Assembly (NCBI GenBank): GCA_003694635.1
Contig: RFKQ01000092.1
Coordinates: forward strand, 1-47,926
From: Planctomycetota bacterium
Lineage (GTDB): Bacteria; Planctomycetota; J132
DNA: 47,926 nucleotides
Direction of reading: 5' to 3'
Part shown: in pieces, positions 2,214-14,350 of the stretch
Numbering within the stretch: the first letter of the stretch is position 1
Layout of the letters: each line of letters starts with the position of its first letter
Notes under the pieces: model-generated
Database searches by the model: none
The model's input: only the letters and a program-made list of their open reading frames with translations
Told to the model about the DNA's origin: nothing
Made by a program: the position numbers and the translations under genes

Positions 2214-4373
2214 ATGAGTTTAGAGAATTTTGTACATTTATCGAAGCCTTCGAGCTTTAGTTGGGAGGTGGAGGGGGAGAGGATTATGTTTGAGACGGGG
2301 AGGATAGCGAAGCAGGCCAATGGTGCGGTGGTTTTGCGGTATAGGGAGGCCTTTCTTTTAGCAACGGCCACGGCGGCTACTCAGCCGAGTGAGGGGATAG
2401 ATTTTGTACCGTTATCGGTAGAATATCGGGAGAAGTTTGCTTCTGCGGGTAGGATTCCGGGGGGATTTTTGCGTCGAGAGGGGCGCATTACAGACGAGGA
2501 GGTGCTGACTTCGCGTCTGGTGGATAGGTCCATACGTCCGTTATTTCCAAAGGATTATCGTTATGAGACGCAGGTCTTGGTTCATGTATTTAGCACGAGT
2601 GAGGAGTGTGATACGGAGCCGTTAGCGATTTTAGCGGCATCTGTGGCGTTGTATATTTCGGACATTCCTTGGGGAGGGCCGGTGGGAGGAGTTCGGGTGT
2701 GTAGGATTGGGGGGGAGTTTCGTTTATTTTCTTCGTTGCAGGAGAGGGAGAGGGCGGATTTAGATTTGGTGATTTCTTGTTCGCCGGAGGGGTTAATTAT
2801 GTTAGAGGGGGGGGGTAAGGAGGTGGAGGAGAGGGAGGTTTTGGAGGCGATGGAGTTTGCGCAGCGGGGTTTAGTTTCTTTTTTTGAGCGGGTATCTGAG
2901 TGGGGGAAGGAAGTAGGTAGGCCGAAGCGTGCGTTGTTGGAGGATGGGGATAGGGCGGCTGTGGAGGCGAGGGCGGAGGAGATTGGTCGGAGGTGGGAGG
3001 CTTCTTTTGCGGAGGCGTTTGGTTTTTCTGTGAAGAAGGCACGTCGGCAGGCGTTGGAGCGCTTACGAGAGGAGGTTTTGGAGGCGTATAGGGATTTGGA
3101 GGGTGAGGGGTTTGATGCGGGTTTTTGCGCCAAGGCGTTTGAGTTGGCCAAATCGGGTTTTATGCGTGCGCAGATACTTCGTGATCGGCGGCGGATAGAC
3201 GGTCGGGGGATGGGGGAGATCAGGCCGATAGAGGTGGAGGTGGGTATTTTGCCGGGGGCTCATGGCTCTAGTTTATTCACTCGTGGGGAGACTCAGGCGT
3301 TGGTGACGTGTACGTTGGGGATGGAGAGTGAGAGTCAGGTGGTGGAAACGATTTTTGGGGAAGGGCAGCGTTATTTTCTTTTGCATTACAATTTTCCGCC
3401 TTATTGTGTAGGTGAGGTGCGTCCCATGCGCGGTCCGGGTCGGAGGGAGATTGGTCATGGCAATCTTGCTCGGCGTGCGCTGTTGCCGGTGATACCTTCC
3501 CGGGATGCTTTTCCCTACACCATTCGGGTGGTTTCTGACATTACCGAGTCCAATGGTTCGTCGTCCATGGCGACGGTTTGTGGGGCTTCTATGGCGTTGA
3601 TGGATGCGGGGGTACCGATTTCGAAGCCGGTGGCGGGGATTGCGATGGGGTTGGTTTGTGAGGGAGAGGAGGTGGCGATACTTTCGGATATTTTGGGGGA
3701 TGAGGATCACTTAGGGGATATGGATTTTAAGGTGGCGGGGACGAGGGATGGGATCACGGCGGTGCAGATGGACAATAAGTTGGGTTCTGTGGAGCGTTCT
3801 GTTTTGGAGAGGGCGTTGCAGCAGGCTCGGGAGGGTAGGTTGAGCATTTTGGAGACGATGTCAAAGACTCTTGGTGCTCATCGGCAGGAGCTTTCGGAGC
3901 ATGCTCCTCAGGTGGCTTCTTTGCAGATTTGTCCGGAGACGGTTCGTCAGTTGATTGGTCCGAAAGGGAAGACCATTCAGCAGATTCAGCAAGACACGGA
4001 GACCTCCATTGAGGTATCGGAAAACGGGAGGGTTCGGATTTACGGAAGGAGTCGGGCCAGGCTTCAGGAGGCGAGGGAGTTGGTGGAATATCACACGGCG
4101 CAGGTGGAGGTAGGCAAGTACTACGAGGGTGAGGTGAGTTCCATACGGGATTTTGGTGCATTTGTTCGCATATATGCCCATGTAGAAGGTTTGATTCACA
4201 TTTCCGAGATTGATCACAAGAGGGTTCAGGCGGTTGAGGATTATCTTCGGGTGGGAGAGAAGGTGGTGGTGAAGGTTTTAGGAGTGGATAGAAAAGGGCG
4301 CTTGTCCCTCTCTCGCAAGGAGGGGCTGCATATTCAGAAAGAGTGTGTGGAAAATTGGAAGGGTAGAATGTAG
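2214..4373 (+). CDS. pnp: Polyribonucleotide nucleotidyltransferase (PNPase)
   Basis: ETGRIAKQANG, GRIPGGFLRREGR, RLVDRSIRPLFP, HGSSLFTRGETQ, RREIGHG, SNGSSSMA, DILGDEDHLGDMDFKVAGT; KH domain (IGPKGKTI) and S1 domain (DFGAFV). Confidence 0.97.
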   Translation: MSLENFVHLSKPSSFSWEVEGERIMFETGRIAKQANGAVVLRYREAFLLATATAATQPSEGIDFVPLSVEYREKFASAGRIPGGFLRREGRITDEEVLTSRLVDRSIRPLFPKDYRYETQVLVHVFSTSEECDTEPLAILAASVALYISDIPWGGPVGGVRVCRIGGEFRLFSSLQERERADLDLVISCSPEGLIMLEGGGKEVEEREVLEAMEFAQRGLVSFFERVSEWGKEVGRPKRALLEDGDRAAVEARAEEIGRRWEASFAEAFGFSVKKARRQALERLREEVLEAYRDLEGEGFDAGFCAKAFELAKSGFMRAQILRDRRRIDGRGMGEIRPIEVEVGILPGAHGSSLFTRGETQALVTCTLGMESESQVVETIFGEGQRYFLLHYNFPPYCVGEVRPMRGPGRREIGHGNLARRALLPVIPSRDAFPYTIRVVSDITESNGSSSMATVCGASMALMDAGVPISKPVAGIAMGLVCEGEEVAILSDILGDEDHLGDMDFKVAGTRDGITAVQMDNKLGSVERSVLERALQQAREGRLSILETMSKTLGAHRQELSEHAPQVASLQICPETVRQLIGPKGKTIQQIQQDTETSIEVSENGRVRIYGRSRARLQEARELVEYHTAQVEVGKYYEGEVSSIRDFGAFVRIYAHVEGLIHISEIDHKRVQAVEDYLRVGEKVVVKVLGVDRKGRLSLSRKEGLHIQKECVENWKGRM

Positions 4374-5264
4374 ATGGAAGAGAGAAAGCGAAGACGAAAT
4401 TTTTCTCAGAAGGGTTCTTTTTCTTCGAAGCATAGGAAAGGGCGGCCGGGTTTCAAAGTTCAGCGTGGGGCTAAGGGTTGGAGGCGGCGTTCTTCTTCGT
4501 CTCAGCGGCGTCGCTACCGCAGGTCACTTCCTCCCGAGATCAAGGCCAAAGCCGAGCAGTTGATGGAGAAAAATGGTTTGAGCTTTAAGTATGCGGTGGA
4601 GGTGGCGCGGGGACGCAAGAAGCTTCCTGAAGCTCTTCAGGAGATGTTTCAGCGCAGGAAGATGGAGGAGCTGATGAGGAAGCACCGCTTAGATCGGGCG
4701 ATGGCTGGTCAGGTGGTTCATCAGCGTCTTTCTCTGGAGGAGGCGAAGAGGATTGTTCATTTTAAGAGGTTCCGTCGCAAGCATATGCGCACAAGTTGTT
4801 TTACTCTTTCGTACAAGCGGAAGTTAGCGTTTGTTTTTGAGTGCCATGGCCATCGGCGGAATGTGGGTATGGTGGTGGTGGATGATCCTTATGACATTAC
4901 GTTGCAGCTGCAGGGAGAGGAGTTGCGGATGCCGAAGTTGGAGGTGAAGTATTCTTATAGGGAGGAGGAGGCTTCGTTGGTTCAGCCGAAGGTTTCTAGG
5001 GATTTGGAAGTGGTGGAGAAGGGTCTAGGTCCTATCCAGCGCATTTTGGACAGGTATCGGATTAAGGATAGGTTGTTGTTTGATTATTATCTTGCGAGGA
5101 AGCCGGTGCGGTTTACCACGTTGGAGGGGGATGTGTTGGTGGGTAGGATAGTGTGGTTTAACCAGTATGAAATTGGTTTAGATTTGGGGGAGAGGGCTAG
5201 CGTTTATCTTTTGCGTCATGCTCTTTACAGTTGGGAGCAGTTGGAGAATGGAGCGGGAGCTTGA
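4374..5264 (+). CDS. Arg-rich protein with a C-terminal Hfq/Sm-like domain and a probable second degenerate Sm domain
   Basis: aa 231-289 (KDRLLFDYYLARKPVRFTTLEGDVLVGRIVWFNQYEIGL...YLLRHAL) aligns by eye with Hfq ([39 protein letters not shown]...MVYKHAI). The ATG directly follows the pnp TAG. Confidence 0.7.
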   Translation: MEERKRRRNFSQKGSFSSKHRKGRPGFKVQRGAKGWRRRSSSSQRRRYRRSLPPEIKAKAEQLMEKNGLSFKYAVEVARGRKKLPEALQEMFQRRKMEELMRKHRLDRAMAGQVVHQRLSLEEAKRIVHFKRFRRKHMRTSCFTLSYKRKLAFVFECHGHRRNVGMVVVDDPYDITLQLQGEELRMPKLEVKYSYREEEASLVQPKVSRDLEVVEKGLGPIQRILDRYRIKDRLLFDYYLARKPVRFTTLEGDVLVGRIVWFNQYEIGLDLGERASVYLLRHALYSWEQLENGAGA

Positions 5265-6240
5265 GACTTTGCAGAGGCCTTATCGAGAGGTTGGGGTAGA
5301 CGAAGGGAGGGTGATTTCCATACTTCGGGAGGTGATGGATACTTCTTTGTCTCCGCTGCCATCTAATTTTTTTTGTCAGCTTGTTCCTCTTCCTTCTTCC
5401 CTTTCCTCTCGTTCTTCCTATTTGGCTCTTAGTACGGATGGGGTTGGTACGAAGTTATGGTTAGCACTTCAGACGGGTTATTTTCGCCATCTTGGTCAGG
5501 ATTTGGTGGCGATGGTTTACAATGACTTGATCACTTGTGGGGCTCAGCCGCTTGGTTTTTTGGACTATTACGCCGCGGGTGTATTGGAGGAGGGGGTGTA
5601 TCGGGGTATACTTTCTTCCATTCAGGAGGCTTGTTTGGAGGTTCAGATGCCGTTGTTGGGTGGGGAGACGGCACAGATGCCGGGTTTTTATCCGCGTGGA
5701 AGGTTAGATTTAGCGGGGTTTGGGGTGGGGGTGGTGGGTGAGGAGGAGTTATTGGGTCCTCATCGGGTGAGGAAGGGGGATATTTTGGTGGGATTTTCTT
5801 CTTCTGGGTTTCACTGCAATGGTTTTAGTCTTTTGCGGCGATATCTTTCTGAGGGGGAGCTTTATCGGAGTTATACCTTTGGGGGGCGGACGCGTCCGTT
5901 GTATCGTTTTCTTTTGGAGCCGGCTTATTTGTATCGTTGGGTGTTGGAGGGGAGGGAGTTTTTGCGTCCGCTTGCTTTGGCGCATATTACGGGTGGTGGG
6001 ATTTATGGCAATGTGGTACGGGTGTTGCCTTCTTCTTTACAGATGCGTTTGGATGAGGAGGTGATTTGGAGTCGTTCGGAGGCGGAGATATTTTTATGGT
6101 TTGGCAGGTTGGCGGGTTTAACACGTCGGCAGATGCTTGCGATTTTCAATTGTGGGGTGGGGATGGTGGCGGTGTTGCGGGAGCCTAGGGAGGAGGATAT
6201 TGCTAGGTTAGGTGGTTTTGTGTTGGGGGAGGTGATTTGA
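5248..6240 (+). CDS. purM: Phosphoribosylformylglycinamidine cyclo-ligase (AIR synthase)
   Basis: YREVGVD, STDGVGTK, DLVAMVYNDL, FLDYYA, GGETAQMPG, SSGFHCNGFSL, AHITGGG, FNCGVGM. Start chosen at ATG 5248. Confidence 0.93.
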   Translation: MERELETLQRPYREVGVDEGRVISILREVMDTSLSPLPSNFFCQLVPLPSSLSSRSSYLALSTDGVGTKLWLALQTGYFRHLGQDLVAMVYNDLITCGAQPLGFLDYYAAGVLEEGVYRGILSSIQEACLEVQMPLLGGETAQMPGFYPRGRLDLAGFGVGVVGEEELLGPHRVRKGDILVGFSSSGFHCNGFSLLRRYLSEGELYRSYTFGGRTRPLYRFLLEPAYLYRWVLEGREFLRPLALAHITGGGIYGNVVRVLPSSLQMRLDEEVIWSRSEAEIFLWFGRLAGLTRRQMLAIFNCGVGMVAVLREPREEDIARLGGFVLGEVI

Positions 6241-9201: not shown

Positions 9202-9618
9202 ATGTCTGAGGTTTTGGAGCGTTCGGGCGGGGTAGTTCTTTTTCGGCGTGAGGGGGGTGAGGTTTGTTTTTTGCTTTTAAAGAGTCGAGCGCATGGGGAG
9301 TGGGGTTTTCCCAAGGGTCATTTGGAGGTAGGGGAGGATTTCCGAGCGGCGGCGTTGCGGGAGTTGCGGGAGGAGACGGGGATAGAGGGAGTCCGATTTT
9401 TAGGGCCTTTGGGGGAGCTTTCGTATCCTGTTGGGGGGCGGCAGAAGAGGGTGGTTTACTATTTAGCGGAGGTATTGGATGGTGGGGAGGTGGTTCTTTC
9501 TTCCGAGCATACGGCGTATTGTTGGGCATCTGGGGAGGAGGTGTTGCGGTTGGTACCTCACGAGAATTTACGGGTGCTTTTCCAACGTTTATGGAGGGAG
9601 TTAGAGGCGGGGGCTTAG
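9202..9618 (+). CDS. NUDIX hydrolase (Ap4A hydrolase-like)
   Basis: WGFPKGHLEVGEDFRAAALRELREETG Nudix box and LSSEH motif. Confidence 0.9.
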   Translation: MSEVLERSGGVVLFRREGGEVCFLLLKSRAHGEWGFPKGHLEVGEDFRAAALRELREETGIEGVRFLGPLGELSYPVGGRQKRVVYYLAEVLDGGEVVLSSEHTAYCWASGEEVLRLVPHENLRVLFQRLWRELEAGA

Positions 9619-10568
9619 GATTTTTTGGTGAGTCGGAGGGTGTAGAGGGTGTTTTGGAGGTCGTTTGGTAGTGGTGCGGTGAAGAGGAAGTTTTTCCCTT
9701 GCCACTGGAATTGGATGCGGTGGGCGTGTAGGGCTAGTCGAGAGAGGAGGGTTTGTTTTTTCCAGCTAAAGGTCTTTCGCCGTCCGTAGAGGGGGTCGCA
9801 GAGGATAGGGAAGCCGAGGTGTTGGAGGTGCACTCGGATTTGGTGGGTTCGGCCGGTATGAGGGTGGACTTGGAGGAGGGAGAGTTTTGGGGTGATGTGG
9901 GGGAAGGTTTCGAGGGTTTGGTAGTAGGTGAGGGAGGGTTTTCCTTTTTGGTCGTAGCGGATGGTCATTTTTTGGTGATTTCGTGGATTTCTTCCGATGG
10001 GGTCAGAGATTTTACCGGTTGGGGGGGAGGGGATACCTTCGCAGAGGGCGAGATATTCTTTGAGGATTTGTCGTTGTTGGAAGAGTTGGGAGAGGGCTTG
10101 ATGAGCGGAGGGTGTTTTGGCGGCGAGGATGACGCCGGAGGTATCTTTATCTAATCGGTGCACGATTCCCCATTTGTTGGGGTCATCGGTGGGTGCGAGG
10201 TTTGGGGTGTACCCTAGGAGGGCGTTGACGAGGGTACCGTGGTGGTTTCCGTGGCCTGGGTGGACGACCATGCCTGGGGGTTTGTGGATAGCGAGGAGAT
10301 GTTGGTCTTCGTAGAGGATATTGAGGGGGATATTTTCGGGAGAGGGTGGCGTTGATTGATTGGGTGAGGTGTTGGGGAGTTGGAGTTGTAGGGTTTCACC
10401 TGGTTTGAGTTTATAGCTAGGTTTGATGATTTTATTTTGGACGGTAGCGTGGCCGTTTTTGATGAGTTTTGCGAGGTAAGAGCGGGAGAGGTGGGGGAGT
10501 TGTTGGGCGAGGAAGGTATCGGCCCGTTGGGTTTGGGTACTGATAAAGGAGAGTTTTTTTTTATCCAT
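9615..10568 (-). CDS. rluD: RluA-family pseudouridine synthase with S4 domain (RluD-like)
   Basis: S4 domain (RADTFLA...SRSYLAKLIKNG), ILYED, KPPGMVVHPG, GIVHRLDKDTSG, TGRTHQIRVH, ALHA. The start is ATG 10568 or TTG 10610. Confidence 0.9.
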   Translation of the reverse strand: MDKKKLSFISTQTQRADTFLAQQLPHLSRSYLAKLIKNGHATVQNKIIKPSYKLKPGETLQLQLPNTSPNQSTPPSPENIPLNILYEDQHLLAIHKPPGMVVHPGHGNHHGTLVNALLGYTPNLAPTDDPNKWGIVHRLDKDTSGVILAAKTPSAHQALSQLFQQRQILKEYLALCEGIPSPPTGKISDPIGRNPRNHQKMTIRYDQKGKPSLTYYQTLETFPHITPKLSLLQVHPHTGRTHQIRVHLQHLGFPILCDPLYGRRKTFSWKKQTLLSRLALHAHRIQFQWQGKNFLFTAPLPNDLQNTLYTLRLTKKS

Positions 10569-10642
10569 GGGATTTTGGGGTTTTGGAGAAGTAGGAAATT
10601 TTATTTCCAACTGGAGTCTTGGGGCAGTTCTTGTGCACCCCT

Positions 10643-11290
10643 CTACTTTTCCACCAACAAATAAGTCTGCGCGGAAAGAAAAGGACGAGTAGGGAAAATC
10701 TTAACTATCCTAAGATTTGCGCCCTCCAGATCCTCGCGCATCCGGTGCAAAGATATTGGCACTCTATCGCGCAAATCCGCACAGCCAAAACAGCGCCTCA
10801 AAAAAAAACGAAATCCAGAAAAGGAAAAAGACCAAAAAAAAGAAAAAATCACATACCTCTGGCTAACCCTTGCCAACTCCAAAAGCGCCCTTCTTCTCGT
10901 GGATGCTTGAGTAAAATGGTGAAAAAGCCTGTTGCAAACAATTAACGGAAAGCTTTCGGAAGGATAACTCAAAGAAAAGATATCCTCCACTTCCCAGCGA
11001 ATCAGAGAAGAAGAAGTAGACACTCTTTTTGCCATTTCAATCATAGCAGGCGAATAGTCCGCCGCAATAACCCGATAGCCCAGATCGGCCAGAAAATAAC
11101 TGATCCGGCCCGTCCCGCAGGGTATATCCAGAATCGCAGCTCCCGGCAGGAGCGAAATGTATTCCATCGCCCTTTGGATACATCTCTTCTCCCTACGATC
11201 TCTAGCTGAGCCAACCAACTTTTGGCTGTATTGCTTCGCCGCCTGGGGTGAGAAAAAGCGATCCTTGCAGAGCTCTTCATCTAAACTCAT
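10643..11290 (-). CDS. Class I SAM-dependent methyltransferase
   Basis: ILDIPCGTGR, AADYSPAMIEMA, DIFSLSYPSESF, RLFHH, ELARVS. Confidence 0.9.
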   Translation of the reverse strand: MSLDEELCKDRFFSPQAAKQYSQKLVGSARDRREKRCIQRAMEYISLLPGAAILDIPCGTGRISYFLADLGYRVIAADYSPAMIEMAKRVSTSSSLIRWEVEDIFSLSYPSESFPLIVCNRLFHHFTQASTRRRALLELARVSQRYVIFSFFWSFSFSGFRFFLRRCFGCADLRDRVPISLHRMREDLEGANLRIVKIFPTRPFLSAQTYLLVEK

Positions 11291-11307: not shown

Positions 11308-12003
11308 CTATTTTTTCCAGCTCAACTCAAACCTCAATCGCATATCCCCTTGGGAAGTAGGAGAAAAACCAAATTTTTGGACAAAAAACCGCGGGAAATA
11401 TTTTTTGAGCTGAAAAGGAGTACGCTGCAAAAGGGGGAGAAAAGGAATGGGAATTTGCTTCTGAATCCGAGAGAGCTTGAATCTGAGAAATTGAAGAGGA
11501 TTGATATTGGGGCGAGCTACACCGTGCTCCAAAACCAAACAAAGTGAAAACGGCCCTTGTATAAGGTTTTTTTTGCTATCCCAAACCAGATACGCCCTCC
11601 CCGAAGCCCACACCGTCGCCACATCCTTAAAACCATCGTCCACAAAACCCGCCTTGGTTTTAAATCCACGCCAGCGGATCTTCCACGTGCGCCGATCGGC
11701 GCGGATATGTATGAGCGCACTCCATTTCAACTGATTGGATTCAATATTTAGAGTAAGTCTTTCTAAAATAGGACGAAGATTGTGGTACTTAAAACGCAAA
11801 ATTTGGAAATCTCGAAAGGCTTTCTTTTTTTGAAGCTCTTGGCGCAGTAGAGAAAATAAACGATTTTCCAACTCCTTTTTGCCTATCGTTGCCTGACCAT
11901 AAATCAAAAAACCTCCTTTCGTCCTCTTATATAAAAGATAATCCAACGTGGAGGCCTGAACAGTCCCCCAGAGAAAAAGAAAACAAAATACGCCAACTCT
12001 CAT
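11308..12003 (-). CDS. Hypothetical exported protein
   Basis: RBS AGGAG before ATG 12003; signal-peptide-like MRVGVFCFLFLWGTVQA; no family recognised. Confidence 0.6.
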   Translation of the reverse strand: MRVGVFCFLFLWGTVQASTLDYLLYKRTKGGFLIYGQATIGKKELENRLFSLLRQELQKKKAFRDFQILRFKYHNLRPILERLTLNIESNQLKWSALIHIRADRRTWKIRWRGFKTKAGFVDDGFKDVATVWASGRAYLVWDSKKNLIQGPFSLCLVLEHGVARPNINPLQFLRFKLSRIQKQIPIPFLPLLQRTPFQLKKYFPRFFVQKFGFSPTSQGDMRLRFELSWKK

Positions 12004-12123
12004 CTTTGCTCTCCTTAAAAACAGGTTCTTCAAATACCTCTAGGAGTGTACGGAACGAAAACCAACCACAACACTTCTATCCTACCAATTTATTCGCCAG
12101 ATAGAGAGTTAGATGACAAAAAA

Positions 12124-12915
12124 TTATTTCTTTCTCTTTTCGATTTTTAGAGGTAAAATTATCAGAATTCCTCTCTTCAGCCCATAAAGCTCGGAATGAG
12201 ACCACTCAATAGCAGAAGAAATTTGATAAAATGATGTGGAGTTTTTTACAATGGGTTGAATAGAAACATCTAAGGGATTTTTCTCCAACATCCAAGCTAA
12301 CAAGACCTTAGAAGCCTGATAAATCGTTTTCATTCGTTTGATATTTGTAAGCTGGAAGTATTTATCTCGATAGCTAAAAAAAGAAATGTGTAGCTTGTCC
12401 AGCTCTCGCTCGGATTCAGAGGTAAAGACCAGATATTTCCCCTGCATTGTCATAAGATATTTTTCCCGAACACCACGGACCTTCATATACGGCTTATCCT
12501 TAAAGGAAATCAATATCTCGCCGCTGACTATAAATCGAATTTTGGTAGGGTCCTTCTTTAAGGGCTCAATATGGAGGCGAATTCCCTGGAAATTCTTTTG
12601 CTTTTTGGGTAAAAAATAAACAGTCAAATAAAAAACGGACAGAGGAAGTTGAATGAGGTCCTTAAATTTTTGCTGAATGAGAGTATAGGAAATAAAAATG
12701 CTCAAACACGGACGTAAAGAGGAATTTTGGAAAACCTTTCTCTTTTGATAAAATGCACTCCACATATCCTGATCGGTGATCCTCATTTTGGAGATTAGCT
12801 CTTGCACAAAAGGGGGAATGCTGGATGGCTTTTGCTTTTTGGGGGAAGGGTTTTGAGCAAAAAGTAATTGGATATAGAAGAAAAAACAAACTATAAAGCC
12901 AATTTTGATTTTCAT
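12124..12915 (-). CDS. Hypothetical exported protein
   Basis: RBS GAGGAG before ATG 12915; signal-peptide-like MKIKIGFIVCFFFYIQLLFAQ. Confidence 0.6.
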   Translation of the reverse strand: MKIKIGFIVCFFFYIQLLFAQNPSPKKQKPSSIPPFVQELISKMRITDQDMWSAFYQKRKVFQNSSLRPCLSIFISYTLIQQKFKDLIQLPLSVFYLTVYFLPKKQKNFQGIRLHIEPLKKDPTKIRFIVSGEILISFKDKPYMKVRGVREKYLMTMQGKYLVFTSESERELDKLHISFFSYRDKYFQLTNIKRMKTIYQASKVLLAWMLEKNPLDVSIQPIVKNSTSFYQISSAIEWSHSELYGLKRGILIILPLKIEKRKK

Positions 12916-13087
12916 TTTCCACTCCTCAAAACACCGAAATTGTAGAATCCTTCTTAAAAATTTTAACACTTGCAAAAAAATGGCAATCCTTTCGTCTACT
13001 TAAAAAAGTTCACAAAGCATGAATTCCATTTCCACATTTCTTCTTAGCTTGGTCTTGCTAGCCATCTAACGAGAAAGGGAAAGTCCC

Positions 13088-14350
13088 ATGAGAGAAAAAA
13101 CTTCTCATTCCAAATCTGAAGTTTACAAAGAATACTTAAGCCTGACCACGGGGAAGTGGAATTTTTGGGAATTCGCCTTTGTGGATACCCTCCAAGAAAT
13201 CCAAAATCAAACACCTGATCAAGCTCAAAAAGCCCTAGAAGCTCTCTGCTATGATCTACAGCAGCTCAGCCGCAACTCCTTTCGCAAAATGCTTCAGAAT
13301 GTAAAACTATTCGCCAACAATGAAAATGACCTAGAAGAAAGTTCCTTGGCCAATGACCGCAAAGTTCTGGAAACCTTTGATCAAAAGATCACCTCCCTAC
13401 TCTCCAGCTACTCTTCCTCTTTGCAACCTCTACATTCCCAGAATATGGGTAAAGCCACTCTCACCTTAAATCTAGAAAAAATGCAAAATAATATTTTGAA
13501 TGACTTAAAAAACGCTTTTACCGAAAGCCTCTTCCAGCTAGGAATACAGGATAAAAACATCCAAGAACGCTGCTATGAATACTTTCTTGCCAAAGGCGGA
13601 ATCGCTTTCAGAAACAAAACTCTGGAAAAAATCTTAAATCGAAATACCGAAATCTTTCAAAAAATTTTCTACTATATTTTCTTGAAAATCGCCGCTATCC
13701 CTCAAGAGGGATGGCAAGATATTTACGAAGAGTTTTATCAAGAATTTTACACCTACTTTCTAAAACATAGAAAAAAGATATTCCGGAATTTTAACCCAAA
13801 TACCTCTTCTTTTTCCACCTATTTAAATGGAATCTTCCGAAACGTTTCCCGAGATTATATCAAAAATACCCTAAAAAACAAAACGTCCAGCCTGTCTTTA
13901 GAAACTCTTCTATCCACCTATATCAACTCCTCCCATACAGCGCATGTAAACACCATCTCCAACGATCTAGAAAATGATGAGAAAAAAATAATATCCCAAG
14001 ATATTCTGAGAAAATTTCAAAAATCCTACCAAAACTACTGCAAAGAAAAAAAACTAGACAAATACTACGATATCCTTTTTAAATATTGGCTCCCGTTTGC
14101 CCTCAAATCCCTTTCCACAAAAAAGGTTAAGAGCGAAATTATCGATGAAATCGCTACCTATTTAAACTTAAAACCCAACTGTAAAAAAGACCGCAATACT
14201 GCTTCTCAAAACCTGAAGCGGGCCAAGAAACACGCCAAAAATTATCTAAAACAGTACGCGATCACCCAACTCCTTGATACAGAGGAAAAAGCGTATTTGG
14301 AAGAAATTCTAAATTTTGGAGAAAAAGTAGACGAATCAAAGCGGAAATGA
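13088..14350 (+). CDS. Large sigma70/ECF-like protein with a long N-terminal extension
   Basis: Region-2-like EEFYQEFYTYFL...FRNFNPNTSSFSTYLNGIFRNVSRDYIK; C-terminal HTH-like DEIATYLNLK...NTASQNLKRAKK. Confidence 0.6.
   Translation: MREKTSHSKSEVYKEYLSLTTGKWNFWEFAFVDTLQEIQNQTPDQAQKALEALCYDLQQLSRNSFRKMLQNVKLFANNENDLEESSLANDRKVLETFDQKITSLLSSYSSSLQPLHSQNMGKATLTLNLEKMQNNILNDLKNAFTESLFQLGIQDKNIQERCYEYFLAKGGIAFRNKTLEKILNRNTEIFQKIFYYIFLKIAAIPQEGWQDIYEEFYQEFYTYFLKHRKKIFRNFNPNTSSFSTYLNGIFRNVSRDYIKNTLKNKTSSLSLETLLSTYINSSHTAHVNTISNDLENDEKKIISQDILRKFQKSYQNYCKEKKLDKYYDILFKYWLPFALKSLSTKKVKSEIIDEIATYLNLKPNCKKDRNTASQNLKRAKKHAKNYLKQYAITQLLDTEEKAYLEEILNFGEKVDESKRK

Follow-up and report, generated by a model that had tools for sequence, protein, structure and literature searches.

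A tandem Hfq-family protein encoded directly behind a second polynucleotide phosphorylase gene in a Planctomycetota genome

The locus

We analyzed a stretch of 47,926 nucleotides (nt) from a Planctomycetota bacterium (GTDB lineage Bacteria; Planctomycetota; J132; assembly GCA_003694635.1, contig RFKQ01000092.1, forward strand), hereafter called the window, in which a gene for polynucleotide phosphorylase (PNPase), here termed pnp-A, is followed by an open reading frame (ORF) of 296 amino acids (aa) and then by purM (Table 1). This ORF is a genuine gene belonging to a conserved family that has no name and occurs in two phyla or more. Its product carries two Sm/Hfq folds in one chain, and we refer to the gene as the tandem-Hfq gene. 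An original prediction, made from the letters of the sequence, had placed the pnp stop codon directly against the start codon of the ORF and had seen in the two genes a dedicated module for RNA chaperoning and decay. The coordinates agree with the first point, there being 0 nt between the two genes; the second is taken up below.

The 719-aa product of pnp-A scores 898.8 bits with TIGR03591 (cut-off 525) and 898.9 bits with NF008805 (likewise above cut-off), and has the Pfam domains RNase_PH (twice), PNPase, KH and S1. The frame of purM is open from ATG 5218 as well as from the putative start given in Table 1, and both candidate starts overlap the 3′ end of the tandem-Hfq gene. Because stop and start codons abut at one junction and the genes overlap at the other, pnp-A, the tandem-Hfq gene and purM form a series without gaps. 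Short intergenic spacing is found elsewhere in the window too (6240/6245, 18650/18660 and 19898/19913). Shine-Dalgarno-like strings, such as the one listed in Table 1, are common here since the whole strand is G-rich. A consensus scan for terminators and promoters returned sites no more numerous than in shuffled sequence; the gap upstream of pnp-A (2003–2213) held nothing promoter-like, and a weak terminator-like site inside the tandem-Hfq ORF (4813–4834) was discounted. To judge from the packing of the genes, the tandem-Hfq gene is probably co-transcribed and also probably translationally coupled with both pnp-A and purM in this genome.

Table 1. Features of the pnp-A/tandem-Hfq/purM region, in window coordinates
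Feature	Position	Strand	Basis or remarks
pnp-A, full-length polynucleotide phosphorylase	2214..4373	+	TIGR03591 and NF008805 above cut-off; Pfam domains; stop TAG 4371–4373
Shine-Dalgarno-like string GGAAGGG	4357..4363	+	10 nt before ATG 4374, within the end of pnp-A; read from the sequence
Tandem-Hfq gene, 296 aa	4374..5264	+	ATG directly after the pnp-A stop; stop TGA 5262–5264
aa 1–40, Arg/Lys/Ser-rich tail, predicted disordered	4374..4493	+	pLDDT blocks 56, 47, 48, 55
aa 41–137, helical region, two repeats	4494..4784	+	AlphaFold2 and family alignment
aa 138–198, first, degenerate Sm/Hfq fold (helix and five strands)	4785..4967	+	Model, superposition, profile, hhalign
aa 199–229, linker, two short helices, invariant R227 (D-R motif)	4968..5060	+	Alignment, AlphaFold2
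aa 230–291, second Sm fold, closer to Hfq; G252, G257, W261/F262, Y265, R281-H282-A283	5061..5246	+	Superposition, Foldseek, profile
purM (AIR synthase-related; AIRS, AIRS_C domains)	5248..6240	+	Putative start ATG 5248

A family with two Sm folds

The 296-aa protein was used as phmmer query in an exhaustive search over 1.84 billion representative proteins, yielding 299 representatives at E<=1e-3, 153 at <=1e-10 and 4 at <=1e-30, counting the protein itself; the best match apart from self had E 2.9e-34 and 35% identity. The relatives are mostly 225–400 aa long, and the alignment runs from the helical region to the C-terminus. A word-index protein search returned nothing beyond the 296-aa protein itself. 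One Arg-rich low-complexity match (genome G021, locus L004) was dropped from the family. The family alignment and profile were made from 80 sequences, which share a common plan: a basic tail whose length differs between members, two helical units, a middle β-domain, a linker and a C-terminal β-domain. In the alignment K188 of the middle domain is nearly invariant and R227 of the linker invariant. An AlphaFold2 model built from the same 80 sequences has a mean predicted local distance difference test score (pLDDT) of 90.3 and a predicted template modeling score of 0.79. A disordered basic tail had originally been proposed for aa 1–50, and pLDDT does fall below 60 for about aa 1–40.

The model contains the helix-plus-five-strands arrangement of Hfq twice, as helix 142–149 with strands 153–196 and as helix 232–241 with strands 244–289. 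When the model was compared with the PDB by Foldseek, as the original prediction had proposed, every top match listed was an Hfq structure (target TM-score 0.65–0.92). Superposition by VIA-align placed aa 230–291 on Escherichia coli Hfq with Z 7.4 and a root-mean-square deviation (rmsd) of 1.1 Å over 60 residues at 27% identity, aa 136–198 on Synechocystis Hfq 3hfo (Z 6.0, rmsd 1.4 Å, 63 residues), and aa 138–196 on Staphylococcus aureus Hfq (Z 5.8, rmsd 1.3 Å); the structural match to Anabaena 3hfn has Z 7.1. A search independent of Foldseek gave the same picture. The first Sm fold also lies on Caulobacter Hfq, with Z 6.0 and an rmsd of 1.4 Å for 61 aa. Though such Z values are modest in themselves, every superposition takes in a complete small domain at low rmsd, in agreement with the evidence from sequence.

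That evidence comes mainly from the 80-member profile, whose positions 190–249 match the Methanocaldococcus jannaschii Hfq-like protein in the PDB at E 1.2e-6 and the Hfq proteins of Listeria and Bacillus subtilis at about 2–4e-4, while positions 90–158 match Caulobacter Hfq 6gwk (8.3e-5), S. aureus Hfq (5e-4) and Aquifex Hfq (5.5e-4). At E<=0.01, 25 of the 80 members match PF17209 (Hfq) and 24 match PF21979 (Hfq_1); among NCBIfam models, Hfq_rel_Cyano is matched by 38 members and TIGR02383 by 22. Profiles of the middle and C-terminal domains (22 sequences each) align to one another by hhalign at 96.4%, with E 1.3e-9 over 47 columns. The protein thus has two Sm/Hfq folds in one chain, homologous to each other and to Hfq, and the homology between them means that the tandem arose by internal duplication. 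Both halves of the claim that had been made for this protein hold: its match of aa 231–289 to Hfq is upheld for aa 230–291 by superposition, Foldseek and family profile alike, and the second, degenerate Sm fold that it placed at about aa 140–195 appears in structure (aa 138–198) and in the family profile. With phmmer, the best PDB match of the middle domain was 'NF4' (7bqc, E 0.006), which was taken as chance.

The putative uridine pocket

For residue comparison we used E. coli Hfq from the annotated K-12 record, a protein of 102 aa encoded in the order miaA-hfq-hflX. Alignment of the family to it by hhalign places window residues 230–294 on Hfq 7–69 (E 4.1e-5, 70% probability). D232 falls on D9, G252 and G257 on G29 and G34, F262, Q264 and Y265 on F39, Q41 and F42, and R281, H282 and A283 on K56, H57 and A58; we take these shared positions to form the uridine pocket of the proximal face as well as the Sm2 motif. 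The latter, [YF]-K-H-A-[IV], has its counterpart in L280-R281-H282-A283-L284, accompanied by the pocket aromatic Y265. Across the family H282 is invariant and R281 and A283 are nearly so, and G252, G257 and E266 are also among the conserved residues of this domain. As far as its residues tell, the C-terminal Sm fold appears to retain most of the proximal-face uridine pocket of Hfq.

Helical repeats

Between the tail and the first Sm fold the model has helices at 54–67, 71–78 and 84–104 and again at 108–115 and 121–137, the repeat unit being a helix, G-[IL]-P, a short helix, G and a long helix. Conserved columns of the repeats in the 80-sequence alignment are G68, A74 and G80 and L100, A111 and G117. 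A helical repeat had been proposed at aa 60–88 and 97–125, and model and family alignment bear it out; it is on these two that the repeat rests, because BLASTP of the two units against each other gives no alignment. Modeled alone, with 21 sequences, aa 52–140 reach pLDDT 94.7. A fold search with the helical region gave no clear match, the best Z being 4.7 or lower (EF-Ts N-terminus, DSX, and UBA/CUE-like three-helix units), and an ESM Atlas feature search with aa 45–140 gave no usable match. One homolog (G143:C15:26948-28132, L036) has an open frame of 416–423 aa, called as an ORF of 408 aa, in which the repeat region of the profile has three additional matches ahead of the two Sm folds; since it carries these extra copies, the helical repeat is a module of variable number.

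Comparison with known Hfq proteins

Canonical Hfq (PF17209/TIGR02383) has the same Sm fold, an N-terminal helix and five bent strands, and its two glycines, aromatic pair and K/R-H-A of Sm2 recur in the C-terminal domain of the tandem protein. It is, however, a single Sm domain of about 70–110 aa that forms a homohexamer, whereas the 296-aa window protein combines two Sm folds with helical repeats and a basic tail at the N-terminus, and its first fold lacks the equivalent of His57. Nor is the window gene near miaA or hflX, unlike E. coli hfq.

The best curated-model matches of the window protein are to the cyanobacterial Hfq-related proteins (PF21979/NF047718; Ssr3341, 3hfo, and the Anabaena protein, 3hfn), and these together with the M. 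jannaschii Hfq-like protein (2qtx, 5dy9) are the best PDB profile matches of the family. They are single-domain proteins of about 70 aa, and the window protein stays under their cut-offs.

Closer in plan are ESM Atlas clusters of 150–194 aa that occur most often in Pseudomonadota and Nitrospirota and bear the name 'putative RNA-binding protein Hfq' or 'Hfq protein domain-containing protein'; Atlas structure matches are leads that come without statistics. Models of these clusters span aa 134–292 of the window protein with 125–128 aligned residues. The clusters have neither helical repeats nor a basic tail, and 100% of their members carry PF17209. Since these shorter Hfq models cover the two Sm folds together, the tandem arrangement of Hfq by itself has precedent. 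NF010691 (PRK14091), a model of 176 positions, may also describe a two-domain protein; E. coli Hfq matches only positions 19–90 of it. Ten of the 80 family members match it weakly (best 5.6e-5; its cut-off is 270 bits), and at E<=0.01 it finds nothing in the genome of the window. A two-repeat Hfq was reportedly described by Sun et al. in 2002.

Distribution and naming

The tandem-Hfq profile has matches in 16 of the 301 genomes sampled from the window's phylum, a count that is a floor because a stricter first pass was used; one of the 16, in G106, is a single-domain ORF of 111 aa. Several genomes hold two tandem-Hfq paralogs. The closest homolog, P0002, comes from a genome of another, small phylum, in which 3 of 14 genomes have the family. 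The ESM Atlas clusters nearest the protein are called 'hypothetical' and are commonest in Myxococcota. Ten close homologs were checked for names: two are labeled 'sRNA-binding regulator protein Hfq' (JGI/IMG) and eight are nameless.

Canonical Hfq is rare in this phylum. PF17209 matches occur in 11 of the 301 genomes, 6 of them above cut-off, and several of the matches are to tandem proteins; the window's own genome, at 67% completeness, gave none. G115, G066, G106, G178, G243 and G288 have ORFs of about 106–123 aa in which there is one Hfq-like domain, in some cases scoring over the PF17209 cut-off, so that single-domain and tandem forms both occur in the phylum.

No paper on the tandem-Hfq family was found in the literature searched. 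Sections of a review of Sm proteins (PMC3710371) mention Sm domains fused to other domains, and in those sections no mention of a tandem bacterial Hfq was found.

A second PNPase gene

A second PNPase gene lies elsewhere in the window's genome, on contig C119 (3783–6549 of the retrieved locus L065), its product being 42% identical over 690 aa by tblastn. The gene for ribosomal protein S15 is 292 nt upstream of it, the canonical rpsO-pnp arrangement, and no S15 ORF was found upstream of the window pnp (2214). C119 has an unusual base composition, the same as that of the window, so the contig's copy belongs to the same organism. Its other neighbors encode a pentapeptide-repeat protein, an FHA-Ser/Thr kinase, an EF-hand protein and Upp. 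The 'PNPase' domain PF03726 is reported for the window copy and unreported for the C119 copy at Pfam E<=1e-4.

Throughout the phylum TIGR03591 is matched at E<=1e-60 in 293 of the 301 genomes. Two PNPase matches were found in 11 of the 16 tandem-Hfq-positive genomes versus 28 of the 285 others, though matches are not the same as copy numbers. PNPase loci were retrieved from 20 genomes and a quick IQ-TREE tree was made of 35 rows, leaving out L080 as too short. A branch with 100% support in the Shimodaira-Hasegawa-like approximate likelihood ratio test splits 20 S15-linked rows from 15 others; the former include the C119 copy and those of all five single-copy genomes, and the window pnp is among the latter. 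Three of the rows on the rpsO-less side (L084, L092 and L094), all on long branches, are partial or have a cut or short upstream flank. Its place in the tree and the lack of S15 upstream make the window gene the rpsO-less paralog, pnp-A.

Eight further family-positive genomes (G008, G037, G046, G072, G120, G139, G158 and G175) yielded both an rpsO-linked and an rpsO-less copy, and in G125 the upstream side of the second copy ends at the contig end. pnp-A is more widespread than the tandem-Hfq family, being present also in many genomes in which the family was not detected. The co-occurrence of the two is suggestive but weak, confounded as it is by kinship: the positive genomes belong to only 8 GTDB families.

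In families f45 and f9, the pnp-A loci (L066-L069, L076-L078) continue with a gene for a pseudopilin-like protein of about 210 aa (N_methyl/T2SSG), the ends of the two genes mostly overlapping or nearly abutting; peptide deformylase is encoded in 6 of these 7 loci and ribF is present in 4. These are odd but conserved surroundings for a PNPase gene.

Base composition

GC skew in the window is extreme and independent of coding strand. It runs at +0.38 to +0.49 over 1–10 kb, flips near 10.6 kb, between the ORFs at 9615–10610 and 10643–11290, to values of −0.28 to −0.44 over 14–38 kb, and reverts near 40.5 kb. Just past the first flip, GC content drops to 0.37 (12000–14000), compared with about 0.5 nearby. 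Over the whole genome the mean |skew| is 0.26 (1175 windows of 2 kb each), with 40 sign flips in 2.52 Mb, and among ORFs of at least 300 aa (n=1023, overlaps kept) the coding strand is G-rich in 404 and C-rich in 409. A strong replication-strand mutation bias combined with many rearrangements is one possibility, assembly joins are another. The skew shapes amino-acid composition, for instance in the Arg/Gly/Glu-rich proteins of this strand.

Possible functions

We consider it fairly probable that the window protein is a tandem Hfq-family protein, likely an Hfq-like RNA chaperone or regulator, encoded in a lineage-specific operon with pnp-A and purM. Its C-terminal domain would bind single-stranded, probably U-rich RNA, and the protein may act as the Hfq-like RNA chaperone or regulator of this lineage. 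The two Sm folds of each chain could take neighboring places in a ring, three chains thereby making a pseudo-hexamer with three Hfq-like and three altered pockets. Complex prediction with three copies of aa 125–296 scored 0.60, 0.24 and 0.00 in its runs, a median of 0.24 against a mark of 0.42, which speaks neither for a trimer nor against one. Eukaryotic Sm/LSm hetero-rings likewise combine diverged Sm paralogs with non-equivalent RNA pockets, as a trimer of the tandem chain would, but they are heptamers of separate chains.

Several results weigh against this reading. Taken alone, the window protein misses every curated threshold: it has 18.5 bits with PF21979 (E 0.0023; cut-off 27), 18.3 bits with NF047718 (cut-off 52) and no match to PF17209. 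Single-domain phmmer searches of the PDB reach Hfq-like chains only at E about 1, and the middle-domain profile aligns weakly to E. coli Hfq by hhalign (probability 2.4%). That domain keeps K188 and the aromatic Y173 but has Leu at the position of Hfq His57. In the better-matching C-terminal domain, the distal-face Y25 of E. coli Hfq is replaced by T248, the rim residues R16/R17 by Y239/L240, with only R242 standing at R19, and Q8 by K231. Gene order points the same way. The 25 homolog loci examined were taken with flanks of about ±4 kb (20 loci), ±5 kb (P0002) or ±1.5 kb (four), some flanks ending at contig ends, and in none of these did tblastn with the window proteins find PNPase or PurM; conversely, no tandem-Hfq family member was found within about 1.5 kb at any of 34 other PNPase loci. 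The neighbors of the homologs vary: recJ at four loci, DUF445 upstream at three, an ABC-F ATPase gene upstream at two, cinA downstream at two, a divergent extracytoplasmic function (ECF) sigma factor gene at two, an rlmN-like radical-SAM gene downstream at one and divergent nrdD-nrdG at one.

Among the loci examined, the order pnp/tandem-Hfq/purM thus occurs in one genome and is peculiar to its lineage; it is not a conserved module. The neighborhood survey that the original prediction had suggested produced no homolog locus with pnp, and its conserved, dedicated PNPase/Hfq module is not supported, linkage being absent at both sets of loci and purM being packed equally tightly. As to recurrent neighbors, the recJ cases are all from family f45 (L045, L046, L047 and L053), where recJ lies directly downstream of the tandem-Hfq homolog in four genomes; upstream in the same loci is a set of SecF, LysM, BMC-like and aldehyde dehydrogenase genes. 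RecJ is a single-strand-specific exonuclease, and recJ is the only recurrent nuclease neighbor among the homolog loci examined.

A narrower version of the module, confined to this lineage, is still to be weighed. In it a three-fold ring of tandem Hfq docks on the pnp-A trimer and hands RNA 3′ ends over to it, as a fused-subunit counterpart of the PNPase-Hfq-sRNA (small RNA) carrier complex of E. coli. The abutting stop and start codons would favor matched synthesis, the partner is a separate paralog and not the housekeeping rpsO-pnp copy, and two PNPase matches are commoner in family-positive genomes. There is also the precedent of the PNPase-Hfq-RNA complex known in E. coli, according to excerpts of two papers (PMC8294330, PMC4748814): there, too, PNPase and an Hfq-type protein may act on the same RNAs, the genes here being back to back. 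In E. coli, however, pnp and hfq are unlinked and Hfq is a homohexamer, whereas here the link is genomic only, is known from one genome, and involves the second PNPase paralog. The adjacency is peculiar to this locus among all those compared; in f45 and f9 it is the pseudopilin-like gene, def and ribF that come after pnp-A; the co-occurrence is confounded by kinship, and pnp-A is widespread without the family. Four family-positive genomes, and also G106 with its single-domain ORF, have one PNPase match, and purM is packed against the tandem-Hfq ORF just as tightly as pnp-A. We therefore regard such a decay module as quite unlikely. More doubtful still is the proposal that tandem Hfq is the dedicated partner of pnp-A, a symmetry-matched pseudo-hexamer feeding or shielding RNA 3′ ends, so that co-occurrence in the phylum would reflect the partnership and this lineage, possibly one of hot springs, would have fixed it as a translationally coupled operon.

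Instead of a general chaperone, the protein might be a specific post-transcriptional or nucleic-acid regulator, either an mRNA repressor of the FljA kind or a DNA or nucleoid binder acting through tail and repeats. FljA binds mRNA. An Atlas cluster of PF03614 (179 aa, 'Repressor of phase 1 flagellin gene') matches over aa 137–294 with a TM-score by row of 0.67, the Hfq distal-face and rim residues that serve mRNA binding and annealing in E. coli are not conserved, and the paralog pairs of many genomes suggest specialization. The repeats, too, are variable in number and weakly like protein-binding units of UBA/EF-Ts type. Yet PF03614 has no match to the window protein at E<=1 or to the 80 members at E<=0.01, the Atlas rows come without statistics, and helical matches at Z 4.7 or lower are not meaningful; this alternative we hold to be unlikely. 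PF03614 and PF17209 proteins occur together in one Atlas cluster, and FljA could be a tandem Sm-like protein in its own right.

Lastly, the adjacency could be functionally meaningless, with a tandem Sm protein whose role has nothing to do with RNA sitting in a compact operon. Gaps are short across the window, the unrelated purM overlaps the ORF, and Sm folds exist outside RNA biology, as in MscS (part of the review PMC3710371). Against this, the Arg/Lys-His-Ala and aromatic pocket is near-invariant across the family, and because such conservation would be difficult to account for if no ligand were bound as in Hfq, a non-RNA role is unlikely and this explanation as a whole highly improbable. 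The tandem Hfq-family protein as an RNA chaperone or regulator is the reading we retain.

On present evidence the gene order is a feature of one genome, and the wider interest lies in the protein family. In many bacteria Hfq is the central chaperone for sRNAs, and the tandem-Hfq family would fill part of the gap left by the scarcity of canonical Hfq in this phylum. If the ring is true, its pockets would alternate, halfway between the homohexamers of bacteria and the Sm hetero-rings of eukaryotes. The family is almost unannotated, and the enrichment of a second PNPase in the genomes that carry it is a lead on how RNA decay and chaperoning may be organized.

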